Source of the DNA: a virus | DNA: 64,000 bases | Virus record (IMG/VR): IMGVR_UViG_3300037155_000072 | Span: 1-64,000 of that record | Reading direction: 5' to 3' (one strand) | Part shown: in pieces, positions 18,752 to 51,327 of the stretch | Position numbering within the stretch: the stretch's first letter is position 1 | Layout of the letters: the number at the start of each line of letters is the position of its first letter | Translations under genes and position numbers: made by a program | The notes under the pieces: generated by a model | What the model saw: only the letters and a program-made list of their open reading frames with translations | Told to the model about the DNA's origin: nothing | Database searches by the model: none

Positions 18752-18817
18752 GCCTAAAAACTACCTGAGTTGCCGGAATATGTCAACCCCAATCTTACGA
18801 TTTCAGGAATCCTAATA

Positions 18818-21800
18818 ATGCCTAACGACGTTCCTAATGTGCCGATTTCGACGCCCCCAGCGCCCGCTCCGGACATTACCCAGGGCATGTTTTCTGCCGC
18901 CCAGCTCCAGGCACCCCTCCCCGAGACGCCCGCCCCCGCCGCGCCGGTAAAATATACCCCGACGGCCCAGGAACTCGCCTCGGCCGCTCCGGTTGCCCCG
19001 GCCGCGCCCGTGAAGTATTCTCCGACTGCCGCAGAGCTCTCCAGCGCCACTCCGGTTGCCCCGCCCAGCGCCCTCGAAGTGATGACGCCGGAGCAACTCG
19101 TTGCTGAGGCAAAAGCAAACCCCAAAAAATTTGACCCAATCTCCGCATTCCAGGCGTTGCCAGCCCAGAAGCAGACCGAGCTTTTCGATAAGGCCGCTGA
19201 GACATATTACCAGCTTCTACAGGCCGGGCACTTCACGCCAAGCCTGGTGGACATGCTTACGAACGTAGGAAAAGGAATTAAGGACCTTGCGTTGACTGGC
19301 GCGACTCTCGCAAATATCGGTTTGGGTGCTGCGGTATCAGCCGGAGCAGAACCGGACCCTTCCACTTTTCGCGGTGCTCTCTCTTTACAGACTCAACAGC
19401 AATCCGGAGAATTCCTGGCGGGCCAAAAGGTTGCGGCGCTCGGGATTGGGCAGATGCTCACCAAGGGAGCAGCTTGGGCTGCACGCGGGCTGCACCTTAC
19501 TAAGGGCCTTCAGGACTACACTCCGGAGGATAAGTGGAACGCTTTTGCGACGGAGCTTGCGACGCGAAACGGAATGGCCAACGTCGTGAAGCAGGGCATC
19601 AGCCCAGAAGCCGCTGCGAACCTCGCGAAACAAGGATACCCACTTCGCCCGGAAAAAGTGGAAGAAGCCGCCTCCGGCTCGCCCTTTGCCTGGGAATTTG
19701 CGGGAAAGCTTTTCGGTGGTGCTACCGGAATGGTCGCGGACTCCGCCACTCCCCTACTCGCGACGCTCGCGGGAGATACATCTGAAGCGGGCCTTGCGAG
19801 TGCCCGGGCGGCAATTCATTCTATTCCCTCGATTGCGTCCGAAGCCTCGACAAAAGTCGTGGGCGGAGCACTCAAAGCTGCCGGGAAAGCGGGCGAATTT
19901 ACGGCAGAGAAAATCGAACCTCTCGTTACGCCCATCGCGAAAGTGGCGGGTATGGCAGGCGGTGCTTTTGCAGGTCATCACATCGGCGGACCCTGGACTA
20001 TTCCGTTGGGTATCGCGGAAGGTCTGGAAAAGGGCGGAAAGCTCGGGGAGAAAATTTCGACGGGCGTAGCGAAGGCGGGTGGGAAGCTGGCCGACCTAGC
20101 GGACATGGGAAAACAGATTGCAACCGGCGAAGGCGTGTCATCCAACACCGCGCAGTTCGTTAGAGACGTAGCACAGGCCGCACCGGGTGCCCTGGCGCAC
20201 GTAGGCGCAGGTGTGGCGATGGACGTAGGTCTCGGGGCAGCAACCACCGAAACACCCGGTGAACGCGCCAACATTACCCCGTTCGGGACAGTTCTCGGCG
20301 GTGTCGGTGCCGCGAAAGGCGTTGCGGGTCGGGCGATTAGCGGCCACATTATCGCGCCTCGGGCTTGGGGAAGTGAGGGAGTCCCACAACGTCCGGATAC
20401 CTTTACGCAGAATTTTCCCGCGCTCAACGCGGAGCATACAGACGCCATGGCGAATGCTCCTGTTGGAGTGCAGCAACGCTTCAACGCGGTTCAGAAGTTT
20501 GTGGACGGCGCTGCCCCGGGCACCCAGATAGTTTATGCGCCGAGGCCGGAAGTCGGACACGAGGACACGTTGCCCGCCGCGCTTCAGCAGTCGGGAATAA
20601 ACCCGAAATTCGCGGCCCGGGATGGCTTTTCAACCAAGGTGCAAGGCACCGATGGCAAAACCCACAATATTGTTGTAGTTCGTGATATGGAAGCCGCGCC
20701 ACACGAGGCTCGGCACGCGATGGACGACGTTATAGGAGCTGGAGCGACCGCCGATTTAAATGCCACCGCGAAGCAAGAATTCGCTGACAAGTGGGATGCG
20801 TTTAAACAAAGGTATGCGGACCGGCTCACGCCCACCGGACTTCCGACCTCAGACCCGAACGGGACAATCCTACGAGAGTCCGGATACGGAGACGCAGCCG
20901 CAAAAGAGAAAATTATCTCACAAGCGCGAGACGCGTTAGGCCCTAATGCTACCGAAGCGCAGGTGCATGCCGAAGCGGGGAAAGCAATTACCGACTTACG
21001 GGGGCAGGCGCAAGCTGCCGGACAGGAATTGTGGCAGCACGTGCTCACTCCTGACGAGCAGTCGAATCAGGTGGACCAATATGTAGGCAGCGAAGTCCGC
21101 GCGGAGCATCACGATGCTTGGTTCAAGGCCGGGCAGCCCGGCACGATGCGGGGCAAGATGGGAATGTTGGGCGGCCGCGTGTTATCGGCGCTCGGGATTA
21201 ACCCCGTCGAAGGCCGTTCCTCTACCTATGGCACGCCGCTCGAAGGCTCTCTCGTTTCCCAGGCACAAAAGACTGCGCCTAAAGGGGTGATGGCTCCCGA
21301 GGCACCTGCCCCGGAAGGCAGTGACGCCGCCCATCAGAAAGGTGTAGTGAACGCCCAGAAGGCCGCCGCCGAAGCCTCGGGGCAACCCGTCGCGGGAGCG
21401 GTCAAATCCCAAAAGGAAGTTCTCGGAATTGTGGCCGAAGCAATCGCGCGCAAGCAAGGCGTTAAGCTGACCAAGCTCTCCGCCCCCGAAGAGCCCGCCG
21501 CTTCTCTGACCTCCGACCGCGAGACCCGCAGGCAGATGATTGAGACATATCGCACGATGCCCGATGCGGCGAAAAAGCTTTGGGGCAAACTCTTTTTCCC
21601 GACTGATGTCCCGGTGCCGGGGCGCGGGGGGAATCTACAAATTTTCGGTTATAGCCCCGAAGTATTCGCCGCCAACGCGCACAAGACTGCCGAGGCAATG
21701 AACACCCTCGCCGACAAAGGCTCGAACCTTTCGCCCTACGAATTGGACCCGGCGACAAAATCATTCACGGAGTCAGGCTGGCGGGAGCTCTACGACGACG

Positions 21801-24800
21801 TTCAAAAATATGTTCAGAACCAAGCGGCCGGGCGAACCGGTTCGGGGACTCCTCTCTCAGTCCCGGCGGCAGTCACGGCTGCTGGTGGGCATGCGCCGCC
21901 GTTACGGGGAGAAGCTGCGCCGCTGACCCAGGACCGCGCGGATTTTATCAGCGCAATGTTTCACGCGAAACTGCCCGATACCGGGATTGCTCGCCAGGGG
22001 GCAATCAACATGCCTCTGAACAAGGCGGGGCAGTTGGTCAGTGCCGCCACAATTCCGGGCCGCGTTGCGCCGCCGGTTGAACCTCGTGGATCTTTTCGCG
22101 GAGCGGTAGCGGTTCGCCAAGGAGTCAAGGGCGAGCCGATTATGGAAGTAAACCCCTTCCGTAATAAATTCGAGTCCGCGTTGAAACAGGCGGGCGTCGA
22201 GAAGCCCTCCCTGATTGAGGCCAATCAACGTCTTAATCTCAAGGATTTGAAGGACGCGGAGCTCGCCCCAGAACAGGGAAAATTCGGCGCAAACTCACTC
22301 GCGTTGCAGGCCGGTTTTCAACCGCGACAACTCATCAATCCCGAAATCGAATCCCGATTGAAGGACAGCAAAGTCCGATTCGAGGACGGAACTCTCAAAC
22401 CCGTTTTCCACTCGACCGTTTTCCAATTTCCCACGAAGGAGATTAGGACCGAAGGATTTCAAGCGCACTTCGGAACCCCAGACCAAGCCGCTGCCCGGTC
22501 TATCGGACCTACAGGCAACCGCAACGCTTCGGCTCTGCAATCTGCCACAGGGGCTCGAACCATACCAGCGTTTCTCGACATGAAAAACCCACTACGAGTG
22601 GATGATGTTGGAAATTGGGCCAACGCGCAAGATGTCGCGACGGGGCTGGAGAAGGCGGGAGTGTCTCTACCAAAAGAATTGTCGAGCCGAATGATTAACG
22701 CGGCCGTCGAGACCGCGCAGGATAAGTTGCCCAGCACACAGAGCAATCAGGATGAGGAGGATTCCTGGGGCCAAGCGAATCAGGCGGTAAACTCTAGGCT
22801 GCAAAACCATCTCCGGGGGAAAGGTTACGACGGGATTGTTTACGCAAACCACTACGAGGACTCCGCCCCGAAGCTGAACTATGGCGGCCGTCAAGAAGAA
22901 CACACATACCGGGGTCAGGAGGAATACAACCCGAGTCTTTACCCGGATAGCTTCATCCCCTTTGACGCAAAGCAGATTCACAACGCCGTTGACACGAAAG
23001 TCCAGTATCAACCATCCGCGCCGAAGAACGCGCACGAGCTCACCGACTTCCTTGACAAGTCCAGCCCGGAGGAGTATAAAACGGCGGTGAACAGCTACAA
23101 AGGCAAATACGGCGGCGGCCAAACGGGCATGAGCTTCGACACTGGCGCACAGGTTTCCACGGCTGATGAACTCGCCAAGCTCCACACCGCACATCAGAAG
23201 TTCCAGCAGATGAGCCGGGACGCGATGGCGCACAAGGATTTCAATACCGCCATGGACATGGCTAGCCGCTCTCAGGCCGCCCGCGAAGCTTACGAAGCCG
23301 CAGAGAATGGCCCTTCGGCCGCGTTCATCCGGGACCACTACGACAAGAATTTTCAGGGCAGCCCATTGCATAAGGGGACCTCGCTGAATTCGGAGCATGT
23401 GAACTTCATGCCGAAGGGCGACCCGCGCGCGATTCGTGCAGCCGCAGTTCAGGACGCAGACAACGGTAAGATTTTCGAGGGGCCGATGCACTTCTACGCG
23501 CATAGCCAAATGATTGCGGCCGGATACAACCACAATGATTTGTTTCGGCACCCCCAGGGGTTCGTCACCAACACGCCGGGAGAATTCTTAGACCGTCAGC
23601 AGGCGTTTAAACGGGCAGAAGAGTTGAACCAACTCAAGGGGTATAAAGAGGGGGACCCGGACATCATGCACCCAACGGGAGGGTTAGCTGCCGACAATTT
23701 GGGCCTAGTTGCGGAACATACGCAGATGCAGCCTCCAAAAAAAGACAAAGAAATCGAGCTGACGCACTACTCGCACACCCCTGGTATCAAGATTCTAGAC
23801 CCCGCTTTTCACGGCACCGGTTTATCTGGGGATGAACGCGCGCGCCAGCGGGACTACCCGGAAATTTATCATCCTCGAACTTATTTCGGCACCAAGGACT
23901 ACAACAAGGAGCCGAACCTGGGGAACGAACAATACCGTGCGATGGTTCAATCCAAAAAGCTGTATCCGTTCCAGGAAGACCCCAAGGACTTATTCCCAGG
24001 TCCGCAGCAAGTGGAAGACGCTGGCTACGCCCCGATGGACAGCAAAGCGGCAAACACGCTCTATGAGCACAAAATATCGCAGGCCGGTTACGAGGGATAT
24101 ATCCACCGCGACTCCGCCGTCGCCGCGAAGTTCACGAAGACCCCGGTTGAACAAACCGGCGGCGCTAATTTTCAACCGCCAAAACTACCCGCTCCCGCCC
24201 CAGAAGAATTCGCGCACGAGGACACAATCGGCACCGCACTCGCGAAGCCGAATTGGGCAATCCTAACCGGCACTCAGGAAGCCCTGGGACCCGCAACCAA
24301 CGAAGCCAACGCTGCGAACAACGAGCGGCTCTACCGTGCGCTGGCCAAAGCGGGCCACACTCCGATTGAAGTCTCAGGTTCTTATAAAGGCGTAGACCAG
24401 GGACGCAATTTTTTGGTAACTGGGATGTCCCCCGAGGAGGCCCGCGATTGGGGCAAAGAATACAAACAGGATTCGGTGCTGACTCCGCACGGGTTACTCT
24501 ATTCGGACGGCAGCATTCAACCGCCGGACGCGTCCCTAACGAAAATCGGCAAGGCGGCCGAGAAGGAAGATTTTTACTCCAAAGTAGACAAAGGCCCCGC
24601 CTTTTCGATGGGATTCGACAAGCGGGAGATGCCAGCCGCAGGCGAGAGCATGCTCGGCGATTTAGGCGCATCGAAGACGCCACTGTCGAGCAAGCAAGTC
24701 GGGGACATGACAAAGAACCAGCTCGCGGCGCATTACCCCGAGTCTGTTATTCCAAAAGCCAAGGATGATGAGATTCATTCCGACATCGTAAACTCGCCCC

Positions 24801-25753
24801 TGGCAAAAGAAGCCGGTAGCCGAGAGAACGCAGTAAAAGTGTTCGGAAAAAAGCTTGCTGAAATGGGGCGCGCCCTGGAGAAGTCCAGCGGGTATCAATC
24901 CGGGCTGAAGTGGTATTCTGAATTCGTGCCGAAGCTGAAAAAGGTCTACGGAAAGCACGCGCAGATGATGGGGGAACTTCTTGCGGCCACGAGTCCAAAC
25001 AATAACCCAACGACGAATTTTGGATTTGCGAACGACGCAATGGAGGGGTTCATCTCGGGGCGGTTCGACAAACAGCTCAAGAAATTCAAAGAGGGCTGGA
25101 ACAAAGTTGAAGATGGGTCCTGGAAAAAATGGCTTGATAAAGAGCTAAAAGCTGGGAATGTCAATAATCCTCCGGAGACTCCCTCGGATGCTACCTTCCT
25201 GGACCACTGGATTACCAAGCACGACTTGAATCCCAGGCAGAGCAACGGCGCACTCTACTCGATGCACTCGGTCGCGGTGCTGAAAGTTTTGGCAAGGCAA
25301 TGGCTGGAGCAAACCCCGGGGCCGAAGACTCAAAACTTCGTAAAGAACTTATTGGGCACCGGCCATGAGGCTACAATCGACGTGTGGGCGGACCGGACAA
25401 TGCGCCGACTCGGCTACGCGGACCACCAAGCGCGGTGGAGAATTCTGCCAAAGAACGGCACCGGAGTTTCGGATGCGGACTTCGCGTTTTCGCAAGAAGC
25501 GTTTCGGCATGCGGCCGACGAGTTGGGCGTGAAGCCTGACGCGTTGCAAGGCGGACTGTGGTTCGCTGAAAAACAGAAGTGGGCTGACGAGGGTTGGGGC
25601 CGACTGGATTTGGGCGATTATCGAAAAGAGCTCGCCAAGGTGGAGATGTTGAACGCCGGAATTACCCAACGGCTAGCGATTCAAAAAGCCAAAGCAAAAG
25701 CGGTGCAAATGGAGCAACCCGATTTGATGTCCCTAGTCACCCCACGACCATGA
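18818..25753 (+). CDS. Giant polyvalent internal virion protein (zincin peptidase, two ART-like domains, DUF3293/SAM-lyase-like domain, C-terminal HhH-glycosylase-like domain)
   Basis: HEARH at 20702; SKVR..DG.LKPVFH..KNPL..GYDG..F.PFD..QI; THYS..LDP..GTG..RTYFG..AGYEG; WAILT..G.Y..QDSVL; WY..LAATSP..N..GPKT.NF..N..TIDVW..Q..LW; start moved to ATG 18818. Confidence 0.75.
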   Translation: MPNDVPNVPISTPPAPAPDITQGMFSAAQLQAPLPETPAPAAPVKYTPTAQELASAAPVAPAAPVKYSPTAAELSSATPVAPPSALEVMTPEQLVAEAKANPKKFDPISAFQALPAQKQTELFDKAAETYYQLLQAGHFTPSLVDMLTNVGKGIKDLALTGATLANIGLGAAVSAGAEPDPSTFRGALSLQTQQQSGEFLAGQKVAALGIGQMLTKGAAWAARGLHLTKGLQDYTPEDKWNAFATELATRNGMANVVKQGISPEAAANLAKQGYPLRPEKVEEAASGSPFAWEFAGKLFGGATGMVADSATPLLATLAGDTSEAGLASARAAIHSIPSIASEASTKVVGGALKAAGKAGEFTAEKIEPLVTPIAKVAGMAGGAFAGHHIGGPWTIPLGIAEGLEKGGKLGEKISTGVAKAGGKLADLADMGKQIATGEGVSSNTAQFVRDVAQAAPGALAHVGAGVAMDVGLGAATTETPGERANITPFGTVLGGVGAAKGVAGRAISGHIIAPRAWGSEGVPQRPDTFTQNFPALNAEHTDAMANAPVGVQQRFNAVQKFVDGAAPGTQIVYAPRPEVGHEDTLPAALQQSGINPKFAARDGFSTKVQGTDGKTHNIVVVRDMEAAPHEARHAMDDVIGAGATADLNATAKQEFADKWDAFKQRYADRLTPTGLPTSDPNGTILRESGYGDAAAKEKIISQARDALGPNATEAQVHAEAGKAITDLRGQAQAAGQELWQHVLTPDEQSNQVDQYVGSEVRAEHHDAWFKAGQPGTMRGKMGMLGGRVLSALGINPVEGRSSTYGTPLEGSLVSQAQKTAPKGVMAPEAPAPEGSDAAHQKGVVNAQKAAAEASGQPVAGAVKSQKEVLGIVAEAIARKQGVKLTKLSAPEEPAASLTSDRETRRQMIETYRTMPDAAKKLWGKLFFPTDVPVPGRGGNLQIFGYSPEVFAANAHKTAEAMNTLADKGSNLSPYELDPATKSFTESGWRELYDDVQKYVQNQAAGRTGSGTPLSVPAAVTAAGGHAPPLRGEAAPLTQDRADFISAMFHAKLPDTGIARQGAINMPLNKAGQLVSAATIPGRVAPPVEPRGSFRGAVAVRQGVKGEPIMEVNPFRNKFESALKQAGVEKPSLIEANQRLNLKDLKDAELAPEQGKFGANSLALQAGFQPRQLINPEIESRLKDSKVRFEDGTLKPVFHSTVFQFPTKEIRTEGFQAHFGTPDQAAARSIGPTGNRNASALQSATGARTIPAFLDMKNPLRVDDVGNWANAQDVATGLEKAGVSLPKELSSRMINAAVETAQDKLPSTQSNQDEEDSWGQANQAVNSRLQNHLRGKGYDGIVYANHYEDSAPKLNYGGRQEEHTYRGQEEYNPSLYPDSFIPFDAKQIHNAVDTKVQYQPSAPKNAHELTDFLDKSSPEEYKTAVNSYKGKYGGGQTGMSFDTGAQVSTADELAKLHTAHQKFQQMSRDAMAHKDFNTAMDMASRSQAAREAYEAAENGPSAAFIRDHYDKNFQGSPLHKGTSLNSEHVNFMPKGDPRAIRAAAVQDADNGKIFEGPMHFYAHSQMIAAGYNHNDLFRHPQGFVTNTPGEFLDRQQAFKRAEELNQLKGYKEGDPDIMHPTGGLAADNLGLVAEHTQMQPPKKDKEIELTHYSHTPGIKILDPAFHGTGLSGDERARQRDYPEIYHPRTYFGTKDYNKEPNLGNEQYRAMVQSKKLYPFQEDPKDLFPGPQQVEDAGYAPMDSKAANTLYEHKISQAGYEGYIHRDSAVAAKFTKTPVEQTGGANFQPPKLPAPAPEEFAHEDTIGTALAKPNWAILTGTQEALGPATNEANAANNERLYRALAKAGHTPIEVSGSYKGVDQGRNFLVTGMSPEEARDWGKEYKQDSVLTPHGLLYSDGSIQPPDASLTKIGKAAEKEDFYSKVDKGPAFSMGFDKREMPAAGESMLGDLGASKTPLSSKQVGDMTKNQLAAHYPESVIPKAKDDEIHSDIVNSPLAKEAGSRENAVKVFGKKLAEMGRALEKSSGYQSGLKWYSEFVPKLKKVYGKHAQMMGELLAATSPNNNPTTNFGFANDAMEGFISGRFDKQLKKFKEGWNKVEDGSWKKWLDKELKAGNVNNPPETPSDATFLDHWITKHDLNPRQSNGALYSMHSVAVLKVLARQWLEQTPGPKTQNFVKNLLGTGHEATIDVWADRTMRRLGYADHQARWRILPKNGTGVSDADFAFSQEAFRHAADELGVKPDALQGGLWFAEKQKWADEGWGRLDLGDYRKELAKVEMLNAGITQRLAIQKAKAKAVQMEQPDLMSLVTPRP

Positions 25754-36933: not shown

Positions 36934-37572
36934 TCACTCCTCGTCTCCCCCTTCCAGCTCGTCCGAGATTTCGAAGTTCATAGGTTTCGAGTTGCATGGG
37001 CAGTGGGGCGCGCCGAACTCCAACCACTTCCGGGTAGTCCGGACGGTGTAGCCGCAATCCTTGCACTCGCATTTCACTGCGCGCGTGGTCTGCTTCTTCG
37101 TGGGGCGGCCGGAGGGTTTGAGCTCCGCGTGAGGATATTCCCCAATTTTGGCGACAATCGCTTTCGCCTTGGCCAGGAATAATTCGCCGCCATGGGCCCT
37201 TGTCAGTTTACCTTCCAGGCCGATGCCCCGGACACACTTGCCGAAAACCTTATTGTGGCCCTCGGGGATGCCTACGATTGCGTGGGCCAGTTCGTGGGCC
37301 AGGGTAGGGAGTATGCCGCAGGCGTCGCAGGCTTGCGCGTAACGCGGTGAAATGAATATCTGATGCAGCTTGTCGGACGCCGCTTTCGCATCCCAGCACT
37401 CGCCGATTGCAATTTTCTTGTTGCCGAGGCCCCGGGATGAAGGCCAGCCGCAGGATACCCGAACAGCAGGCACTTTGTAGCCCTGCTCGATGAAAAGCGG
37501 AGTCAGCTCCGCCGTTGCGTCTATCAGCCACTTCTCGCGATTCGAGTCAGTGGGTATTTTTGTTTTGCTCAT
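36934..37572 (-). CDS. SprT-like zinc metallopeptidase with C-terminal zinc ribbon
   Basis: LAHELAH...GH...F and C-terminal CxC..CGY.VR...CPC. Confidence 0.8.
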   Translation of the reverse strand: MSKTKIPTDSNREKWLIDATAELTPLFIEQGYKVPAVRVSCGWPSSRGLGNKKIAIGECWDAKAASDKLHQIFISPRYAQACDACGILPTLAHELAHAIVGIPEGHNKVFGKCVRGIGLEGKLTRAHGGELFLAKAKAIVAKIGEYPHAELKPSGRPTKKQTTRAVKCECKDCGYTVRTTRKWLEFGAPHCPCNSKPMNFEISDELEGGDEE

Positions 37573-50470: not shown

Positions 50471-51046
50471 TCAGCCCGGCGGGATTTGCGTTTGGGTTTT
50501 GTCCACATTTAGCGAGGCCCTCTCGGTCATTTCCTGCACGCTCTTCGCCGCGTCTGCGTCACTACATTCACAGCGGCGCATTAACTCAGCAACTGAAATC
50601 GACACTCCGTCGTTACCGTGCAGTAGATATTTTTCAGGGTCCGTAAGGGCTTCAACCGTCTGTTGGCCGTGCGAAACCACCCTTACCCGGTCCTGGTAAG
50701 CCGATTTGATTTTCGCACGCTGCACCAGAAAAGCGTCAATCCTGCGCTTGTATTCACGGGCCAAATTCTCCCAATGACCGGCTTCGCCTAGTTTACGAAA
50801 AGACTTACTGTCCCGTTCCGCCTTCTGAAGTTTAACGAGGTATTTTTGTGTCAGCCGCTGTGATTGGGCCAGCATACGTTCATAGCCATCTGCAAAATCC
50901 TCCGCTTTCCACTTCGCTTCGCGTTCTTCCCGATACCACCGCCCGTGAACCAGCGAAAACATATCTGGGCACTGAGTAATCAGCCCCCACATACCGAATG
51001 CGCCACACACCGCACCGACCACCATAAGAAAGAAAAGCCCCATCAT
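50471..51046 (-). CDS. Membrane-anchored coiled-coil protein
   Basis: N-terminal TM segment followed by charged helices. Confidence 0.55.
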   Translation of the reverse strand: MMGLFFLMVVGAVCGAFGMWGLITQCPDMFSLVHGRWYREEREAKWKAEDFADGYERMLAQSQRLTQKYLVKLQKAERDSKSFRKLGEAGHWENLAREYKRRIDAFLVQRAKIKSAYQDRVRVVSHGQQTVEALTDPEKYLLHGNDGVSISVAELMRRCECSDADAAKSVQEMTERASLNVDKTQTQIPPG

Positions 51047-51327
51047 TGTATCCTCCTAAAATTCTTTTCCCAAAGTTCTTTTGCTATGACTGTTGCCACC
51101 TCGGTGACAAACTCCTCGCGCAGCAAAGGCATCTCGCGATGCATTAACTCATGAATCAGTGTATCCAGATAATCTAATGGGCGCAGCCGAGGGTCTACCT
51201 CGATTGCGCCACTACTCTGATAGCATACGCCCCAGCCTGGATGCCCCTTACTATAGGGACCTTTCTTGGTCTGGTTGCGCTCGATGACCGGCGGGTAGGT
51301 CTTGCTGGTGTTGAGTTTGACTCTCAT
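51043..51327 (-). CDS. Minimal zincin-like metallopeptidase
   Basis: DTLIHELMH...EE.V. Confidence 0.65.
   Translation of the reverse strand: MRVKLNTSKTYPPVIERNQTKKGPYSKGHPGWGVCYQSSGAIEVDPRLRPLDYLDTLIHELMHREMPLLREEFVTEVATVIAKELWEKNFRRIQ

Follow-up and report, generated by a model that had tools for sequence, protein, structure and literature searches.

The virus record IMGVR_UViG_3300037155_000072 is a single contig of 74,866 bp, and the window analysed here is the whole stretch formed by its first 64 kb (positions 1 to 64,000). The genome is that of an uncultured phage, with collagen-like tail-fibre genes on the + strand and genes for a helicase, exonucleases, a family A DNA polymerase and an RNA ligase on the - strand. 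The late block of this phage runs on the + strand from ~63 kb across the contig ends to 25.7 kb and holds the tail-fibre genes; its largest and last gene is a giant open reading frame (ORF). The subject of this work is the protein encoded by this ORF, in which a train of variable cassettes lies between a conserved N-terminal carrier and a conserved C-terminal domain, and the short peptide motif that recurs at the junctions. The features of the giant ORF are listed below, with the residues of the protein counted from nucleotide (nt) 18770.

18770..25753, + strand: giant ORF, 2327 amino acids (aa) from TTG 18770; last gene of the late block.
18818..22312, + strand: conserved N-terminal carrier of ~1170 aa, up to A1181, with a Pro/Ala-rich start, a Gly/Ala-rich region, a zincin domain and a WYL-like domain.
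20387..21286, + strand: zincin-like domain (aa 540-839), with HEARH at 20702-20716 (aa 645-649) and the putative third-ligand Glu775 at 21092-21094.
21350..22306, + strand: WYL-like region (aa 861-1179), just upstream of junction 1.
22313..22324, + strand: junction 1, G-F-Q-P (aa 1182-1185), with F1183 at nt 22316.
22325..23002, + strand: cassette 1, similar to ART-PolyVal (ART, ADP-ribosyltransferase), with Pfam PF18760 at aa 1205-1409.
23003..23014, + strand: junction 2, Q-Y-Q-P (aa 1412-1415), with Y1413 at nt 23006.
23015..23401, + strand: cassette 2, helical domain.
23402..23413, + strand: junction 3, N-F-M-P (aa 1545-1548), with F1546 at nt 23405.
23414..23722, + strand: cassette 3, T4 Y16D-like small alpha/beta domain (aa 1546-1652).
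23723..23734, + strand: junction 4, Q-M-Q-P (aa 1652-1655), with M1653 at nt 23726.
23735..24166, + strand: cassette 4, second ART-like domain, with an AcrIF11-like fold (aa 1656-1796).
24167..24178, + strand: junction 5, N-F-Q-P (aa 1800-1803), with F1801 at nt 24170.
24179..24634, + strand: cassette 5, DUF3293, with a fold like that of the T3 S-adenosylmethionine (SAM) lyase; Pfam DUF3293 at aa 1842-1903.
24671..25750, + strand: conserved C-terminal domain (aa 1968-2327), with DUF7178 at aa 2178-2267 (36.3 bits).

The pattern [FYM][QM]P matches the giant protein exactly five times, each time in its variable part, compared to ~1.0 match expected in the whole protein and 0.56 in its last 1178 aa. 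The remaining 80 ORFs, 20,527 aa in total, show no enrichment, with eight such matches vs. 6.1 expected. An earlier note on this DNA had placed the motif at the five positions given above, at the apparent domain boundaries, and these positions were confirmed: one site is found at every cassette boundary except the last. In the AlphaFold2 (AF2) model of aa 1150-2327, which has a mean predicted local distance difference test score (pLDDT) of 75, the sites correspond to model residues 34, 264, 397, 504 and 652, and every one of them lies in, or at the C-terminal edge of, a linker with pLDDT<50, 5-8 residues before the next secondary-structure element. Specifically, junction 1 is located in the pLDDT<50 tail of both this model and a second one of aa 540-1200, junction 2 at the end of the pLDDT<50 stretch of model residues 211-266, junction 3 directly after that of residues 376-396, and junctions 4 and 5 inside those of residues 476-510 and 649-656, respectively. 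The predicted domain boundaries thus coincide with the motif at all five sites. In three large relatives, likewise, no Pfam domain is interrupted by a site.

Relatives of the giant protein were obtained as at least 372 cluster representatives in an exhaustive search (E<=1e-30, 50% clustering), with no cultured member among them, and as 120 proteins of 1300-3600 aa, mostly on contigs of 60-75 kb, in a word-indexed search. No match to the giant gene or protein was obtained by megablast in phages and plasmids or by tblastn in phages. The full-length relatives from metagenomes numbered 164. The N-terminal carrier is common to ~100 of the 120 proteins, covering the giant protein up to aa 1185, and the last ~350 aa, corresponding to the C-terminal domain, are present in 159 of 163 relatives. 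After P1185, the coverage drops from 103 to 13 within 40 residues, and cassettes 1 to 5 are independently present or absent, being found in 11, 56, 91, 31 and 46 of the 163 relatives, respectively. The cassettes of other relatives include radical SAM, histidine phosphatase, GNAT and methyltransferase domains, among others, and the precomputed Pfam sets differ from one relative to another. When 79 proteins were cut at their motifs, 454 segments in 122 clusters, 90 of which are singletons, were obtained, with a median spacing of 152 aa. Some short relatives could be taken for natural splits at the motif; we rejected them as such, since they look like truncated gene calls at contig ends (one of them, for example, begins at the M of F-M-P).

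The ends of the sequence matches fall on the same sites. For the giant protein, 26 BLASTP matches finish exactly at P1185, nine begin at residue 1412 and 44 at residues 1544-1546, and both ends and starts cluster at 1644-1663. In an all-vs-all comparison of the 164 proteins, the positions where matches begin have their peak at -1 and 0, and those where they end at +2, counted from the F of the motif, and 19-23% of the breakpoints are within 5 aa of a motif, compared to 3.4% of random positions. The suggestion that relatives swap cassettes exactly at the motif was borne out by these breakpoints, and cassette exchange at the motif is well supported by the sequence comparisons.

With regard to its form, the consensus of 351 contexts is A-[Q/G]-[F/Y]-[Q/M]-P; a Pro follows the motif in only ~14% of the sites, and there is no invariant Glu. 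The pattern [QG][FY]xP occurs 792 times in the 164 relatives, compared to 135.5 times expected. Across the aligned family, the general motif is therefore [Q/G]-[F/Y]-x-P with a lineage-specific x, and the form (F/Y/M)(Q/M)P of the earlier note describes only the version of this lineage. The same note had counted REMP (E1953-M-P, nt 24626) as a weak sixth site. We rejected this site, since it represents the conserved end of the DUF3293 cassette, which in relatives is followed a few residues later by a true Q-F-x-P (e.g. ..REPAQFKP.., ..VPAQFAP..). In many relatives that lack DUF3293, there is a junction ~370 aa from the C-terminus, and in a second group, including the giant protein, the last site is ~520-545 aa from the end. 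Judging from these alignments, this phage and its closest relatives have lost the junction that separates DUF3293 from the C-terminal domain.

The residue x turned out to be a property of the individual protein. In 61 relatives, junction 1 has an invariant G1182, with A1181, F1183 and P1185 conserved to at least 90%, and the alignable junction reads FQP, FMP, FLP, FAP, FEP, FKP, FSP or others. Thus x (Q, M, S, L, K, E or A) differs between lineages, and it is nearly uniform across the junctions of one protein, single proteins carrying FSP 11 times, FLP nine times, FEP seven times, or [F/Y]KP or [F/Y]MP six times. Within proteins, 1866 pairs of sites are concordant for x, compared to 1120 +/- 31 in shuffles; when only [QG][FY]xP pairs before different cassettes are considered, 649 of 2144 are concordant, compared to 319 +/- 18. 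The Y16D-like cassette, which is the commonest one with 65 motif-delimited copies in 49 proteins and seven x classes, is preceded by the variant of the respective host protein, be it FQP, FSP, FLP, YKP or YMP. On a tree of the carrier (FastTree, 67 classified proteins), the x class switches at least 16 times. By these comparisons, x belongs to the carrier lineage rather than to the cassette and all junctions switch together, as expected if a single factor reads all sites.

The giant protein comprises at least seven folded modules according to AF2, Pfam and fold searches, with several unrelated enzymatic or effector domains in one phage polypeptide; no RNA polymerase domain was found in it. Since Foldseek gave no match at E<=0.001 for either AF2 model, our statements on folds rest on VIA Z-scores. 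Cassette 1 matches PF18760 with 27.3 bits (E 7e-6), below the cut-off of 31.2, and is therefore named only ART-like, although close relatives carry a precomputed PF18760; it is poorly modelled by AF2. Cassette 2 is predicted to consist entirely of helices (pLDDT ~90). For cassette 3, PF26092 is precomputed on most relatives, and the Y16D assignment in the giant protein itself is a lead from the Atlas (score 0.88). Cassette 4 is similar to 6kyf, the AcrIF11 ADP-ribosyltransferase (Z 5.8, 114 of 137 residues aligned, spanning AcrIF11 residues -4 to 132). Cassette 5 matches DUF3293 with 32 bits (cut-off 25), and aa 1802-1949 give a Z of 11.8 to 8bb1_E (root-mean-square deviation (rmsd) 3.8, 123 residues aligned) and of 10.3 to 7ock_A; the Foldseek probability for this fold is 1.0 (E 0.013). 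Residues 3-153 of the T3 SAM lyase align to the same stretch, residue 3 falling on Q1802 within junction 5. The match of cassette 5 to the SAM lyase family PF23780 gives 13.8 bits (cut-off 28); on the modelled structure, cassette 5 has the fold of the T3-type phage SAM lyases and is named only SAM-lyase-like. Within the C-terminal domain, aa 2029-2284 are similar to archaeal and bacterial 8-oxoguanine glycosylases (Z 10.1 to MjaOgg 3knt_C with 180 residues aligned, 9.1 to 3n0u_C) and to EndoIII-3 (7.2), and the domain is predicted to have a helix-hairpin-helix (HhH) glycosylase fold, for which we claim no activity. In the models, the junction-to-junction units match free-standing phage proteins, such as the T3 SAM lyase and AcrIF11, from end to end, which suggests that the cassettes work as separate proteins.

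The carrier contains a candidate for the factor reading the sites. The HEARH motif at 20702 was recognised in the earlier note as that of a zincin, in agreement with our alignments of 32-61 relatives, in which H645, H649 and E775 do not vary and E646 is conserved to at least 90%. In the AF2 model of aa 540-1200 (mean pLDDT 83), two strands precede the HExxH helix, the Glu is borne by a later helix, and junction 1 belongs to the disordered tail. The best protease-like structural matches of the zincin region (aa 540-839; 148-169 residues aligned) are in the group of anthrax lethal factor (LF) and the Pro-Pro endopeptidases (PPEPs), with VIA Z-scores of 6.4/6.2 to LF chain residues 39-256, which represent its zincin-like non-catalytic N-terminal domain, and of 5.5 to the catalytic protease PPEP-1 (148 of 198 residues aligned). 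The model and the alignments support HExxH...E as a conserved zincin-type site in a fold weakly similar to LF and PPEP-1, and this resident site is the only protease-like one conserved in all relatives examined. The WYL-like region between the zincin-like domain and junction 1 gives VIA Z-scores of 9.9 to PafBC and BrxR and of 9.3 to CapW (84-90 residues aligned, rmsd 2.1-2.7). In these three proteins, the WYL domain is the ligand- or single-stranded-DNA-sensing domain of a defence regulator.

There is not a single Cys in the 2327 aa of the giant protein, compared to 1.45% Cys in eight other large ORFs of the phage. Likewise, 132 of the 164 relatives are devoid of Cys, and carriers of a radical SAM cassette retain only the three cluster cysteines of its CxxxCxxC motif. 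Such an avoidance of Cys fits a translocated or ejected protein. Together with the position of the gene and the analogy to polyvalent proteins, it suggests that the giant protein may be packaged and injected.

Based on these observations, we propose that the giant protein is a phage-type polyvalent protein, composed of a carrier with a zincin-type site, a train of autonomous effector cassettes and an HhH-glycosylase-like C-terminal domain, in which the [Q/G]-[F/Y/(M)]-x-P motifs would be polyprotein processing sites at the ends of flexible linkers, one before each cassette. All junctions would be served by one protease, for which the resident zincin is the most likely candidate; by recognising the short peptide, it would release the cassettes as separate proteins, either in the head or after ejection into the host. 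A single reader for all junctions would keep x uniform within a protein and let it drift or switch between lineages, and any cassette flanked by the motif would be a valid substrate, such that cassettes could be gained, lost, duplicated and exchanged at the motif. That the motifs are cut by the resident zincin to release effectors is, in our judgement, somewhat more probable than the sum of its alternatives, and cleavage by some enzyme, whichever it is, appears likely. The scissile bond (↓) may be either Q↓F-x-P or F-x-P↓X, both of which fit. In the former case, the aromatic residue would be accommodated in a hydrophobic S1' pocket, as in thermolysin-type enzymes. In the latter case, Pro would occupy P1, as in the substrates of LF and the PPEPs.

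Two positions of the carrier vary with x to some extent. At position 648, inside HExxH, the three K-class proteins all have K and the Q class mostly has F, an association confounded by phylogeny. D782, seven residues past the zinc-ligand Glu, is kept by 39 of 40 Q-class proteins and replaced by S or T in the large L/M clade and by M or N in two lineages of the E class. We regard these associations as a hint and not as evidence. A more speculative extension of our proposal, which we consider improbable, would be as follows: each lineage might have a private junction code in which x co-evolves with the specificity of the zincin, so that only the cognate carrier frees the cargo and captured cassettes need to be recoded to the x of their new host protein. 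If the cut were Q↓F, the effectors would moreover start with Phe or Tyr, the primary N-degrons of the bacterial ClpS-ClpAP pathway, and thus carry a built-in timer.

A number of observations weigh against processing by the resident zincin. No cleavage product has been observed anywhere, and there is no cultured relative. The Z-scores to LF and PPEP-1 are in a range in which chance similarities are frequent, the LF alignment concerns a non-catalytic domain, the Foldseek E is >0.1, and in neither AF2 model is junction 1 placed confidently in the active site. When carrier aa 560-1190 and the C-terminal domain were searched for covariation with x (mutual information and nearest-neighbour switch pairs), only the x of junction 1 followed the class; the association of D782 is imperfect, several non-Q lineages retaining the D and three Q lineages losing it, and phylogenetically confounded. 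In addition, the early/replication block contains two more ORFs with HExxH, at 36934-37572(-) (212 aa) and 51043-51327(-) (94 aa), one of which is probably the source of the single SprT-like Pfam hit (E 4.9e-4). Searches of the head genes against PHROGs, Pfam and PDB sequences were almost blank, such that a head protease was neither recognised nor excluded. Finally, the virion RNA polymerase of N4 contains a metallopeptidase and is nevertheless packaged unprocessed (PMC5512222).

The N4 enzyme, and some plasmid polyvalent proteins which also travel uncut (PMC5512222), are in line with the idea that the motif is not a cleavage site at all. It could be a docking or handling signal, for anchoring in the head, for a packaging chaperone or for threading through the tail, or a folding insulator that caps the modules; a short linear motif in flexible linkers would suit such roles, and a common binding partner, rather than a protease, would suffice to keep x uniform. 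A pure folding insulator, however, would require neither a uniform x nor concerted switches of x, and the end-to-end match of the cassettes with free-standing enzymes suggests separate action. The last junction, moreover, was lost without the loss of either flanking domain, which is easier to reconcile with an optional cut than with a handling signal that is obligatory. We thus consider an uncut motif unlikely, albeit worth keeping in mind.

Alternatively, the motif could be a cleavage site read in trans, by a hidden head-maturation protease, another HExxH protein or a host protease, with the resident zincin being used elsewhere, for example against host proteins or the cell wall. The absence of a carrier residue that covaries cleanly with x would be in agreement with this, as would the two further HExxH ORFs. 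In T4 and phiKZ-type phages, short motifs in packaged proteins are cut by head proteases, and a head protease could be hidden among the structural genes of this phage, most of which are unrecognisable. Known head proteases, on the other hand, favour Glu at P1, whereas no Glu is invariant in our motif; a host protease would fail to account for a lineage-specific x with at least 16 switches among related phages; and it is the resident HExxH...E, as the sole protease-like site, that is kept in every relative examined. A reader in trans therefore seems rather improbable to us. The least credible explanation, a DNA-level repeat or recombination seam that provides microhomology for cassette exchange and has no role as a peptide, would account for the homology breakpoints exactly on the motif and was rejected, since the five sites have four different 9-nt codings and their 36 flanking bases are identical only at chance level (mean 31%), nine bases are too few for homologous exchange, and conservation tracks amino-acid classes (F/Y; Q/M) and not codons, all of which speaks for selection on the peptide and not on the DNA.

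For processing by the resident zincin, the closest analogues in terms of mechanism appear to be viral polyproteins and MARTX-type toxins. These combine autonomous domains, a short recurrent linker peptide and a protease in the same chain, and their effectors are shuffled between strains. Their proteases are cysteine or serine proteases (3C-type enzymes cutting after Gln, the cysteine protease domain of MARTX toxins after Leu), whereas the giant protein has a candidate zincin, the motif [Q/G]-[F/Y]-x-P and cutting that we infer. The feature by which self-processing polyproteins are known, a short motif recurring at the junctions in flexible linkers, is present in the giant protein.

With respect to composition, the giant protein resembles the phage-type polyvalent proteins with a zincin-like metallopeptidase hub described by Iyer, Burroughs, Anand, de Souza and Aravind in 2017, for which autoprocessing by the metallopeptidase was proposed (PMC5512222). 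As in these proteins, one phage polypeptide of variable composition carries an HExxH...E metallopeptidase, ART and other conflict enzymes (PMC5512222); the combination of metallopeptidase and ART domains, to which the earlier note had referred as known, is indeed described there. The hallmarks of their metallopeptidase, a HExxH helix and a Glu in a later helix, are found in the carrier in a strand-strand-helix topology, with a weak fold match (Z 5.5-6.4), and the similarity of the carrier to LF agrees with the HHpred link to lethal factor reported for polyvalent metallopeptidases (PMC5512222). The 2017 study names no cleavage site and does not use the word 'linker' (PMC5512222), whereas in the present family there is a defined motif with a lineage-specific residue. 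Further differences to the described polyvalent proteins are the fixed carrier, the fixed DUF7178 end and the SAM-lyase-like, T4 Y16D-like, radical SAM, His-phosphatase and GNAT cassettes.

The PPEPs are HExxH zincins that cut X-X-P↓P-X-P (VNP↓PVP, PLP↓PVP), and these motifs occur 13 times in their substrates (PMC10413326). Our proposal shares with the PPEPs and LF (M34-type) the combination of a zincin with a short, repeated, proline-containing motif. Between the carrier zincin and the M34 zincins, we found weak structural similarity and no match at the sequence level. In contrast to our case, the PPEPs are secreted and act in trans on adhesins, and the junction motif has an aromatic residue two positions before the Pro. 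DdrB of phage P1 is packaged in the head, contains a metallopeptidase domain and is proteolytically processed before packaging (PMC5512222). DdrB is processed in a single event for which no motif is known, the RNA polymerase of the N4 virion is packaged uncut, and neither of the two has a train of cassettes with repeated junction motifs. In the searchable literature, we found no description of the giant-protein family, of DUF7178 or of the junction motif; what is new here is that the junctions have a defined motif, that it varies in a concerted and lineage-specific manner, and that this uncultured family is of such a size.

As for the gene itself, its true start is probably ATG 18818 rather than the annotated TTG: ATG 18818 is preceded by AGGA ~10 nt upstream, and the relatives start with 'MP..P'. 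Some relatives (e.g. P0024, P0025 and P0033) carry an extra junction-like A-A-F-Q-P ~20 residues from the N-terminus. On the 3' side of the giant ORF, the genes switch to the - strand, and an identical layout was found in one related viral contig. No DNA polymerase of a cultured phage shares more than 26% identity with the family A enzyme of this phage. In the late block, two adjacent nucleotide-sugar epimerase-like genes are located at genome positions 71997-74072 (PHROG 540, E 5e-66 and 3e-84). The gene at 69044-70390 has Atlas features suggestive of phage scaffolding proteins (score 0.90-0.92), which we take as no more than a lead, and the preceding ORF of 715 aa would then be the portal; neither product was recognised in PHROGs, Pfam and PDB sequence searches. 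A Pfam scan of 52 ORFs of the genome, which were pooled such that families are reported without assignment to an ORF, gave hits outside the giant gene that include an ice-binding domain (E 4e-55), a serine recombinase (Resolvase plus Recombinase), a sigma-70 region 4 protein, two endonuclease VII, AP2 and HNH domains, and the N-domain of a dATP/dGTP diphosphohydrolase.

Polyvalent proteins are thought to be the first weapons that a phage or plasmid brings into a cell. The proposal of 2017 that a metallopeptidase cuts them into effectors had no defined sites, and the family described here gives exact candidates, together with natural specificity variants in the form of FQP, FMP, FSP, FLP, FKP, FEP and FAP. 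If the motif is the cut site, the lost last junction would be a natural 'uncleavable' variant, and DUF3293 and the C-terminal domain would stay fused in this lineage. If the pairs of protease and site proved to be orthogonal, they could make up a toolbox of specific proteases. The motif also shows how the cargo can be parsed: cuts placed at it give units of a single domain, many of them unknown proteins, which are good candidates for functions in anti-defence or host takeover, and it could serve as a landmark for the mining of effectors in viromes.

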